From a candidate division WWE3 bacterium GW2011_GWC2_41_23 (GTDB taxonomy: Bacteria; Patescibacteriota; WWE3; UBA101185; UBA10185): 64,000 nt of DNA. A program made the translations under genes and the position numbers. Shown piece after piece: positions 40,735 to 41,908 of the stretch (its first letter is position 1; each line of letters opens with the position of its first letter). The DNA lies in the NCBI GenBank assembly GCA_000996895.1, contig LCBB01000005.1, positions 11,421 through 75,420 on the forward strand. The letters are read 5' to 3'. The notes beneath the pieces were generated by a model. It was given only the letters and a program-made list of their open reading frames with translations, was not told the DNA's origin and ran no database searches.

Positions 40735-40794
40735 AATTCTTCCGGCTGTTACCGCAAAGTAATAAGAAATTTATAAATTTTCTCACACGTACCC

Positions 40795-40822
40795 TTGACA
40801 AATATTTTAAAAAAGGTAATAT
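40795..40822 (+). promoter_or_regulatory. sigma70-type promoter driving the non-coding unit
   Basis: TTGACA (40795-40800), 16-nt spacer, TAATAT (40817-40822). No substantial + strand CDS follows for more than 1 kb. Confidence 0.65.
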
Positions 40823-40825
40823 CAC

Positions 40826-41570
40826 TTCCACGTCTTTCAAGGAACTTTAAAAACAGAAAAGTAGCGAGGTAATGCAAATTACACTCCCGGAAAACTAACG
40901 ACGACGCGAGTCATCATTAGCAAACCCCGGAACAGGACACCAAGGTAAAGGAAAAATGGAACCGCAAATCACTACCATCCCCTTAAAAGGAAAAATAGAG
41001 ATACAAGGTCCCGTCATCCCTACTAGTAGCGAAAGCCACTACCCCCTTAAGACCGGTTGTTACACCCGAAGGATAGTTTGGAAGTCATGGAGCAGATTGG
41101 TGAAAACTAATTACTTCACGTAAACTTGCTAAAGATAACCGGAAGGGAATCGATAGAAGTATAACGTACCCGGACAAAGCGCAAGCCCAAATCCCCGTGT
41201 GACGCCCTGTATAAGGATATCAAACAAATTTCGTAAAGAGCCCAGAGGTAACACTCAAAGCTATTTCCAGCACCACACCCTGGAACTAAGACTCAAGGCA
41301 AAGGAAAAACCGAGCTTCTGACAAATACTACCATCCCCTTAAAAGGAAGATAGAACTCCAAAGCTTAGTAATTCCCCACTAGTCGCGAAAGCAACTAAAC
41401 CCTTGCACTTAGTTACGAAGACCCGAAGGATAAAAAATAAAGAACCGAGAAAGTCACACGAGCCAGGATCAGTGAATGTATGGAATATAGGGAACCCAGT
41501 CTGAAAGCGAAAGCTATCATACTCCCCTAAATACCAATACAAACATGAAGTCCTGGCTCTACCCTTTTTT
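40826..41570 (+). ncRNA. candidate large structured non-coding RNA with internal domain duplication (unassigned family)
   Basis: Upstream promoter, GNRA-capped stems, long-range helices (41053-41061/41134-41142; 41196-41203/41453-41460; 41461-41468/41551-41558), an exact 22-bp repeat (40971-40992 = 41327-41348) and a 3' T-tract at 41565-41570. Confidence 0.7.
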
Positions 41571-41700
41571 AATAAGTATTTTCGAGTACTCAAATAGTGG
41601 AGACAATTTCAAAAAAAACGGAGGAATCTGATTTGTGTTTTTAGCACCTGAGGATGTCAAAGAAATAATTTTCCTTTAACCTGAACGCCTTTTTGGGAGA

Positions 41701-41725
41701 AACAAAAAACCGCTTGGTAGCGGTT
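41701..41725 (-). terminator. intrinsic terminator (minus strand)
   Basis: Reverse complement AACCGC-TACCAA-GCGGTT-TTTTGTT. Confidence 0.6.
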
Positions 41726-41854
41726 AGATTAATTAGTTTCGTCCGGTCTATTAATTTTAAGACATTTGCAAAAGGGCATTTACTTCCTTAAGTATTTACT
41801 TTTGTAAAATGCGAGTCAATGATTTTCGGATTTAAAAAACTTTTTACGCACAAA

Positions 41855-41888
41855 CAAAAAATAACGGGCAGTGAATTCACCGCCCGCT
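41855..41888 (-). terminator. intrinsic terminator of the 41909..42502 gene
   Basis: Reverse complement GCGGGCGGTGAATTCACTGCCCGTTATTTTTTG. Confidence 0.7.
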
Positions 41889-41908
41889 AATTTTATTTTC
41901 AGCTCAAG

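Follow-up and report, generated by a model that had tools for sequence, protein, structure and literature searches.

A large structured non-coding RNA, virtually certain to be real, lies in an intergenic gap of the window analysed here, the whole stretch of 64,000 nt taken from LCBB01000005.1 (GCA_000996895.1; positions 11,421–75,420, forward strand), and apparently represents an undescribed family. It has an elaborate fold and is accompanied at most homologous loci by a convergent partner unit, overlooked in the original prediction, which carries a matching motif that changes together with that of the large RNA and which keeps a short ORF open. The minus-strand unit is very probably tied to the large RNA in function, and the two RNAs probably pair. 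As a whole model, put forward with somewhat less than even confidence, we propose a scaffold RNA of the ornate kind that is under the control of an antisense partner gated by translation.

Locus and fold of the large RNA

The gap (40735–41908) measures 1,174 nt and is flanked by convergent genes, in line with the ~1.17 kb originally described, in a host genome of 837 kb and 96.65% completeness; the genomes of relatives range from 0.4 to 1.4 Mb. The TTGACA-16-TAATAT promoter, terminal helix and T-run read from it in the original prediction were found in place, as were the hairpin at 40869–40882 and the repeats (22-mer 40971/41327, 16-mer 40941/41294, 32-mer 41017/41373, 12-mer 41064/41421). This promoter on the 5' side and the terminal hairpin with its U-run on the 3' side bound the large RNA. 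Among homologs the promoter is conserved as TTGACA-16-TANNNT, and its spacing combined with CCACGY 5 nt downstream occurs in 10 of 134 class genomes, every one of them a carrier of the large RNA. The part of the gap at ~41619–41819 is a conserved convergent unit and no mere spacer. The features on the plus strand are the following.

40795..40822, plus strand: sigma-70-type promoter of the large RNA, TTGACA-16 nt-TAATAT (sequence)
40828..41570, plus strand: large structured non-coding RNA, ~743 nt, with inferred ends (fold, homologs, near-identical contigs)
40832..40838, plus strand: 5' strand of closing helix P1, pairing with 41449–41455
41449..41455, plus strand: 3' strand of P1 (duplex prediction)
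40861..41075, plus strand: module 1, a four-way junction closed by GUAGC/GUUAC (alignment, fold)
41084..41219, plus strand: middle module, its arm shortened, with closing helix GUCAU/GUGAC and a CC-loop-GGAUA end (alignment)
41230..41432, plus strand: module 2, closed by UUCGUA/UACGAA (alignment)
41460..41570, plus strand: 3' terminal domain, a long hairpin (41460–41469 with 41550–41559) plus U-run (covariation)
41490..41501, plus strand: motif GGGAACCCAGUC, predicted docking site of the partner, its core unpaired in an internal loop of the 3' hairpin

The plus strand of 40828–41570 has a predicted folding energy of -183.3 kcal/mol and z = -5.19, a stability that none of 20 shuffles reached; z is -4.20 for the minus strand and lies between -2.5 and -14 in eight further homologs. 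In the predicted plan, the 5' end pairs with a purine run ahead of the 3' domain as closing helix P1, which encloses up to three four-way-junction modules. The P1 duplex is predicted in 10/10 close homologs, being the best site of the RNA in 6/10, and recurs with altered sequence in 6/6 distant homologs, where changes fall on both strands; the single-sequence fold of L150 (z = -14) displays the three-module plan directly. Modules 1 and 2 carry a long arm, which in module 1 ends in a three-way junction and a GNRA hairpin. The closing helix of the middle module keeps 4–5 of 5 pairs in 8/10 sequences (replaced in L050, absent in L066) and that of module 2 all 6 pairs in 9/10, with changes on both sides. 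The closing helices are related to one another (GUARC/GYUAC, GUCAY/GUGAC, UCGUA/UACGA), and each module is followed by a small CC-loop-GGAUA hairpin.

Of the duplicated covarying domain originally described, the repeat and its covariation thus stand, but the copy number does not, as a third, shortened module lies between the two. Two helices of that description proved particular to the window: the 8-bp helix CGTGTGAC/GTCACACG around copy 2 has 8/8 pairs there and 0–6/8 in the nine other aligned sequences, its strands belonging elsewhere (41084–41088 with 41199–41203, and 40832–40838 with 41449–41455), and the CCGG/CCGG part of the helix CCGGTTGTT/GATAACCGG forms 4/4 pairs only in the window.

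Covariation was scored over ten short-form module arms, where 96.5% of cells are paired and 9 of 23 pairs show two-sided change, and over ten sequences of the 3' domain (85% of cells; 13 of 33 pairs). In the controls, which ignore kinship and concern structures derived from the same sequences, 0–2 of 500 shuffles scored as high and slid registers dropped to 27–48%. RNAalifold on the full alignment gave two-sided change in 25 of 81 pairs. The two copies of the inner arm are closer within a genome than between genomes, for either copy, in 4/10 sequences (L067, L081, L016, L050), and a 40-nt arm extension is found in both copies wherever it is present, so that the arms appear to have been homogenised repeatedly between modules; the outer helices group by position. 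Nested within the long arm, at 40956–41014 and 41309–41369, is a second copy of the internal-loop motif AAAGGAAAA / AUCCC; five sequences have this extension, and each of them has it in both modules.

With z = -5.2, 16 homologs and covarying helices, the promoter-driven, stand-alone ornate RNA of the original prediction is upheld; no ORF in it is common to the homologs. At gathering threshold, Rfam 15 finds three tRNAs in the window and nothing else, the nearest of them more than 30 kb from the large RNA. At relaxed thresholds (E up to 10 for the window, 5 or 1 for seven close and six distant homolog loci), the only matches of the large RNA were two weak ones in the window, one of 14 nt (E 5.6) and one at the 3' end (E 6.2), so the check proposed at the outset bears out that it is neither OLE, ROOL, GOLLD nor another Rfam family. 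The literature searchable as full text describes no such RNA in CPR bacteria; motif lists in supplements (e.g., PMC8040213) could hold a fragment.

ROOL, GOLLD and OLE have been studied by cryo-EM and their functions are poorly understood (PMC12286853). The large RNA resembles them in size range, elaborate covarying fold, stand-alone gene and orphan status, and GOLLD in particular in combining a conserved 3' region with a variable body. Unlike ROOL and GOLLD, it was not found on phages and has no tRNA nearby in the window; unlike all three, it holds repeated modules inside a single closing helix and faces a convergent partner, none being mentioned for them in the available portion of PMC12286853. 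Its natural variants span 366–908 nt, possess either two or three modules and occur both with the partner and without it, so that they can serve as a ready-made deletion series in structural work.

Homologs and presence in RNA libraries

Sixteen distinct full-length large RNAs are known, within that size range, and 12 of the 134 class genomes carry one, every carrier belonging to family f1 (86 genomes; seven genera with a carrier). BLAST over 101 genomes yielded four relatives. A two-part pattern gave 30 loci across all species genomes and 45 in metagenomes, of which 2 and 11 scored with domain profiles; the profile search marked the other 28 and 34 as chance matches. After removal of duplicates, the close set comprises ten distinct full-length sequences, 44–90% identical, plus a single partial sequence. 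Carriers G042, G113, G003 and G053 came from a covariance model of the 3' domain, G115 from the partner pattern and G121 from a pattern of promoter and 5' end; in G123, a partner unit stands at the contig end. Outside family f1, two models found no large RNA in phylum samples of 150 genomes, and neither did the promoter pattern over 400 phylum genomes. Four viral-contig scans and searches of 50,697 phage records and of plasmids gave no true match, the viral-contig matches L049, L256 and L257 being due to chance. The partial homolog (L060:1–145) ends abruptly after the module 1 arm, with unrelated DNA beyond, and may be a truncated copy or a misassembly. The family shows that genomes below 1 Mb can retain a large non-housekeeping RNA.

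Among 23 listed sequencing runs, 20 contain part of the stretch, 16 of these being on record as RNA; seven were examined, chosen because they contain the stretch and including four of the 16 RNA runs, whose shares are small, and their contigs are without strand, end or level information. A 674-nt contig in X1 covers 40882–41555 with two differences, and a 595-nt contig in X3 and X4 (one sample) covers 40897–41491 with none; runs X1–X4 are labelled metatranscriptomic but flagged as probably DNA. In X1, X3 and X4, the flanking DNA is without near-identical cover over 3 kb and 20 kb. Four RNA-seq runs from four studies (X5, X8, X9 and X10) hold contigs of relatives inside 40828–41451, with single-contig depths of up to 399, 93, <5 and 771, respectively. 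These data support the presence of the large RNA in RNA libraries, contigs being no measure of its abundance, and in environmental libraries such contigs reach high depth. None of the contigs shown from the examined runs lies over the partner unit, uncovered parts being counted neither way. In X8, the match of a 575-nt contig (aligned at 40828–41308) starts exactly at 40828 after 81 unmatched letters, the last 30 of which are unlike a promoter and resemble the 3' arm of the terminal domain. This single contig may stem from an RNA that is circular or permuted, or from an artefact of reverse transcription.

The convergent partner unit and the shared motif

Downstream of 11 of the 16 large RNAs, on the opposite strand, stands the convergent unit; at a twelfth locus (L126), its terminal hairpin is visible before the contig ends. 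A partner-only pattern has nine matches in the class, seven of them by a large RNA, one at a contig edge and one inside a gene; the match in G021 (L141), inside a gene, was set aside as chance. The adjacency in G002 runs across a contig break, which L067 spans. The features on the minus strand are the following.

41791..41819, minus strand: partner promoter, TTGACT-17 nt-AATACT (conserved in 11/11 partners)
41729..41779, minus strand: small ORF of 16 codons, MPFCKCLKINRPDETN, its stop 5 nt ahead of the terminator stem (sequence)
41700..41725, minus strand: intrinsic-terminator-like hairpin AACCGC-loop-GCGGUU plus U-run (11/11 partners, ~-9 to -11 kcal/mol)
41684..41694, minus strand: segment predicted to fold back on the small-ORF start codon in a read-through transcript (model)
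41619..41647, minus strand: remaining arm of the partner terminal hairpin (alignment with close homolog L067)

The promoter consensus is TTGAC-N18/19-ATACT, and the start codon, ATG in 8 and GTG in 3 of 11 partners, follows 2–7 nt beyond. In most partners the peptide reads M/V-P-x4-L-K-I-N-R; it is 14–18 aa long, basic and without a hydrophobic stretch. Its frame is open for 14–18 codons in 11/11 partners, frames +1 and +2 in 5/11 and 0/11, and a shuffled leader keeps the frame open about one time in three. Synonymous differences amount to 24% in this frame, vs 16% and 9% out of frame, and occur within L-K-I-N-R; substitutions are spread nearly evenly over the codon positions (191, 179, 209), with no third-position excess. 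The stop codon lies 0–13 nt before the terminator-like hairpin in 11/11 partners. Beyond the terminator come, in order, the fold-back segment, CUGGGU(U)CCC and a long distal hairpin. The fold-back is predicted with 9–18 bp in 10/11 loci (the segment is deleted in L050), its helix being more stable on the minus strand in only 8/11. In the window, 38 nt present in L067 are missing at 41647/41648, which removes the antisense site and the other arm of the hairpin; the deletion may be biological or an effect of assembly.

The CUGGGU(U)CCC of the partner, ~110–165 nt from its 5' end, is the complement of the motif at 41490–41501, the two forming a direct repeat on the DNA. Both copies agree in form, with GGGAACCCAG at six loci, GG(G)ACCCAG at three and GGGAGUCCGG at one, and change together in 10/10 intact loci, many of them kin, so that independent motif changes number about two or three. 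The predicted duplex spans 11–15 bp at -22.5 to -28.5 kcal/mol in 10/10 intact loci, with at most 1 of 200 shuffles as good, and within each large RNA the best duplex windows coincide with the motif. The window itself scores at chance (-10.1; 164 of 200 shuffles as good). Four loci keep the large RNA and have no partner: L150 has lost the motif altogether, L029 and L128 carry a broken version, and in L064 a single position has changed.

A simpler reading, which we consider unlikely while giving it real weight, takes the large RNA alone, with the minus-strand unit as a small-protein gene ending in an ordinary terminator and the repeated 10–14-mer as the site of one protein on DNA or plus-strand RNA. 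The near-palindromic motif, the partnerless loci and the loss of the second copy in the window would all fit it. So would the closeness of stop and terminator, a spacing possibly ordinary because 16 of 54 terminators in G000 lie similarly close, within 12 nt of a stop by a rough detector. Folding is also in its favour: nested co-folding places no intermolecular pair in the motif in 11/11 loci and gives no support for the duplex, while forcing the full duplex costs +6.6 to +19.7 kcal/mol in 9/10 loci, a cost overstated by nested models, in which a kissing contact cannot coexist with the outer helix that surrounds it. Against it stands L136, a locus found through its partner (site GGGAGTCCGGT, plus sense), upstream of which a large RNA with the same 11 letters then came to light, in agreement with the prediction; both copies have changed together at three positions. 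Where copies differ at motif position 11, moreover, the difference amounts to a U-G pair joining the large RNA to the minus strand, and in the distal hairpin 10 of 13 pairs show two-sided change, with G-U pairs on the minus strand. Nor did a shared protein emerge. The screen for one retained 16 of 841 ORFs of G000, each with a counterpart in carrier G113 (874 kb) and a weak one or none in non-carrier G001; the class-wide comparison covered one of the 16, a zincin-like peptidase, which was rejected as a partner because, within the family, 6 of 13 carriers and also 20 of 73 non-carriers have it.

Several smaller observations concern the same region. Positions 41669–41684 are 81–87% complementary to the module motif CAAGGYAAAGGAAAA, a match kept in close homologs only. 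In L081, 16 of the first 17 nt of the partner are complementary to module 1 of the large RNA at the same locus; L127 and L129 have weaker 10-nt matches of this kind, and no consistent one occurs at other loci. Two partners match Trp_leader in Rfam weakly and without significance (E 0.81 and 2.9). In L028 (3402–3974), and at this locus only, genes for a RelE/YafQ-type toxin and a probable antitoxin adjoin the partner promoter.

Proposed mechanism and competing explanations

In the translation-gated model, the large RNA would be an abundant, multivalent scaffold whose modules act as repeated binding or self-assembly units, an idea taken by analogy from ornate RNAs that assemble into RNA-only oligomers. 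With a ribosome on the small ORF, transcription would pass the terminator at the stop codon, and the read-through RNA would hide its own start codon and display a small CUGG-type loop. This loop would kiss the unpaired (A)ACCCA bulge, after which the duplex would extend and open the protective 3' hairpin of the large RNA. Running translation would thus keep the large RNA bound or subject to turnover, and a halt in translation would set it free; in the window genome the large RNA would be unregulated, because the antisense site is deleted. Such translation-linked release would suit dormancy or stress, a role that we regard as doubtful. A protein-free version of the switch, in which a multi-module RNA, probably self-assembling, is captured by its 3' handle through a leader-gated RNA in host-dependent CPR bacteria, would amount to a new class of RNA machine in bacteria, one linking a scaffold RNA to translation; it is conceivable but rather unlikely.

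The nearest parallel for the gating step is the leader-peptide transcription attenuator of the pyrBI type. As in such attenuators, a short promoter-proximal ORF ends 0–13 nt before a terminator, with conserved sequence beyond; unlike in them, a non-coding antisense segment and no protein gene lies downstream, neither a regulatory codon run nor an antiterminator helix is seen, and the start is nearly leaderless. Translation of the small ORF may set read-through in the modelled way, at a little under an even chance. Coupled ribosomes can antiterminate intrinsic terminators (PMC7858274). According to the same source (PMC7858274), a terminator that lies less than 100 nt into an ORF loses almost none of its efficiency, and a short gap between stop codon and stem indicates that transcription is uncoupled. 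The linked partner with its co-changing site and apparent translation sensor offers a handle on the control of ornate RNAs. Leader-gated antisense control, if true, would tie the large RNA to the protein synthesis of the cell.

It is improbable that the cassette is instead a selfish or mobile RNA element, with guide-like pairing to the DNA motif or RNA I/RNA II-like control and its enzymes in trans. Patchy presence (12 of 86 family genomes) agrees with such an element, as do neighbour genes that vary between genera, with unrelated functions, and the finding that G001 (one contig) and G004 have the same-neighbourhood genes and no cassette. However, the cassette is present as one copy per genome and at the same chromosomal place in close homologs of genus g1, the 21 neighbour genes scanned include no transposase, recombinase or reverse transcriptase, reverse transcriptase occurs in only 3/5 carriers, unlinked to the large RNA, and the viral, phage and plasmid searches point the same way. 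In G004, the C39 peptidase-TPR gene that is a cassette flank in this genus (L142:5229–6355) reads as two overlapping frames.

A still less probable explanation is a type I toxin-antitoxin system resembling par (pAD1)/Fst, with the small ORF as toxin and the large RNA as an oversized antitoxin pairing through the direct repeat. The layout is that of par: convergent promoters, and transcripts complementary through an oppositely read direct repeat, here in 10/10 intact loci, with a small ORF on one transcript and an intramolecular helix over its initiation region, as far as par/Fst is described in the available part of PMC7472228. The start codon is likewise predicted to be hidden in the long transcript, and no partner occurs without a large RNA where the contig permits a look. 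The differences from par/Fst, drawn from the same material (PMC7472228), are these: the non-coding RNA measures 366–908 nt vs ~40 nt, there is one repeat vs two, separate terminators take the place of a shared bidirectional one, the pairing site lies past the terminator and far from the start codon, and the basic peptide is without the membrane-type hydrophobic core of the ~30-aa par/Fst peptide. The window, moreover, retains the promoter and ORF and has lost the pairing site.

Disfavoured, and very improbable, is a CsrB-like protein sponge or multi-aptamer riboswitch, for although the ~20 GGA triplets of the original prediction are indeed present (21 vs 12.6 expected in the window copy) and folD lies 45 nt downstream on the same strand in L029, CsrA (PF02599) is found in 0/5 carriers that are 85–97% complete, only 2 of 21 GGA are in hairpin loops, four distant homologs have 5–8 GGA, near expectation, and, in line with the original doubt about a riboswitch, no same-strand downstream gene is consistent (those in L064 and L128 are on the opposite strand, and the genes differ in kind) and no Rfam riboswitch matches. 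The many GGA triplets recall CsrB/RsmY, sponges of CsrA/RsmA that display GGA in hairpin loops; unlike theirs, the triplets here are neither displayed in loops nor conserved in number.

Two candidate relationships to housekeeping RNAs were rejected. Replacement of RNase P RNA was considered on three close carriers without an RF00010 match, but rnpB is present in G000, cut by the contig start (C12:1–110), and complete in carriers G031, G048, G111, G042, G113, G115 and G003; G002 and G006 are likewise without an RF00010 match, and the large RNA matches neither RF00010 nor RF00011. Derivation from 23S rRNA, whose domain I the large RNA was presumed to resemble, fell because comparison with the 23S of G001 did not reach significance (best E 0.35). 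The whole genome G000 has no Rfam match for 6S RNA or small SRP RNA, and 23S rRNA is absent from its assembly; its tmRNA is at C7:35277–35666. It also encodes a reverse transcriptase domain in a 715-aa frame (C4:30114–30737), unlinked to the large RNA. A large ORF at C4:5111–7560, which we take to be akin to large serine recombinases, is 72% identical in G113 and, together with the adjoining ORF, weak or absent in G001, which suggests that this pair is a mobile element.
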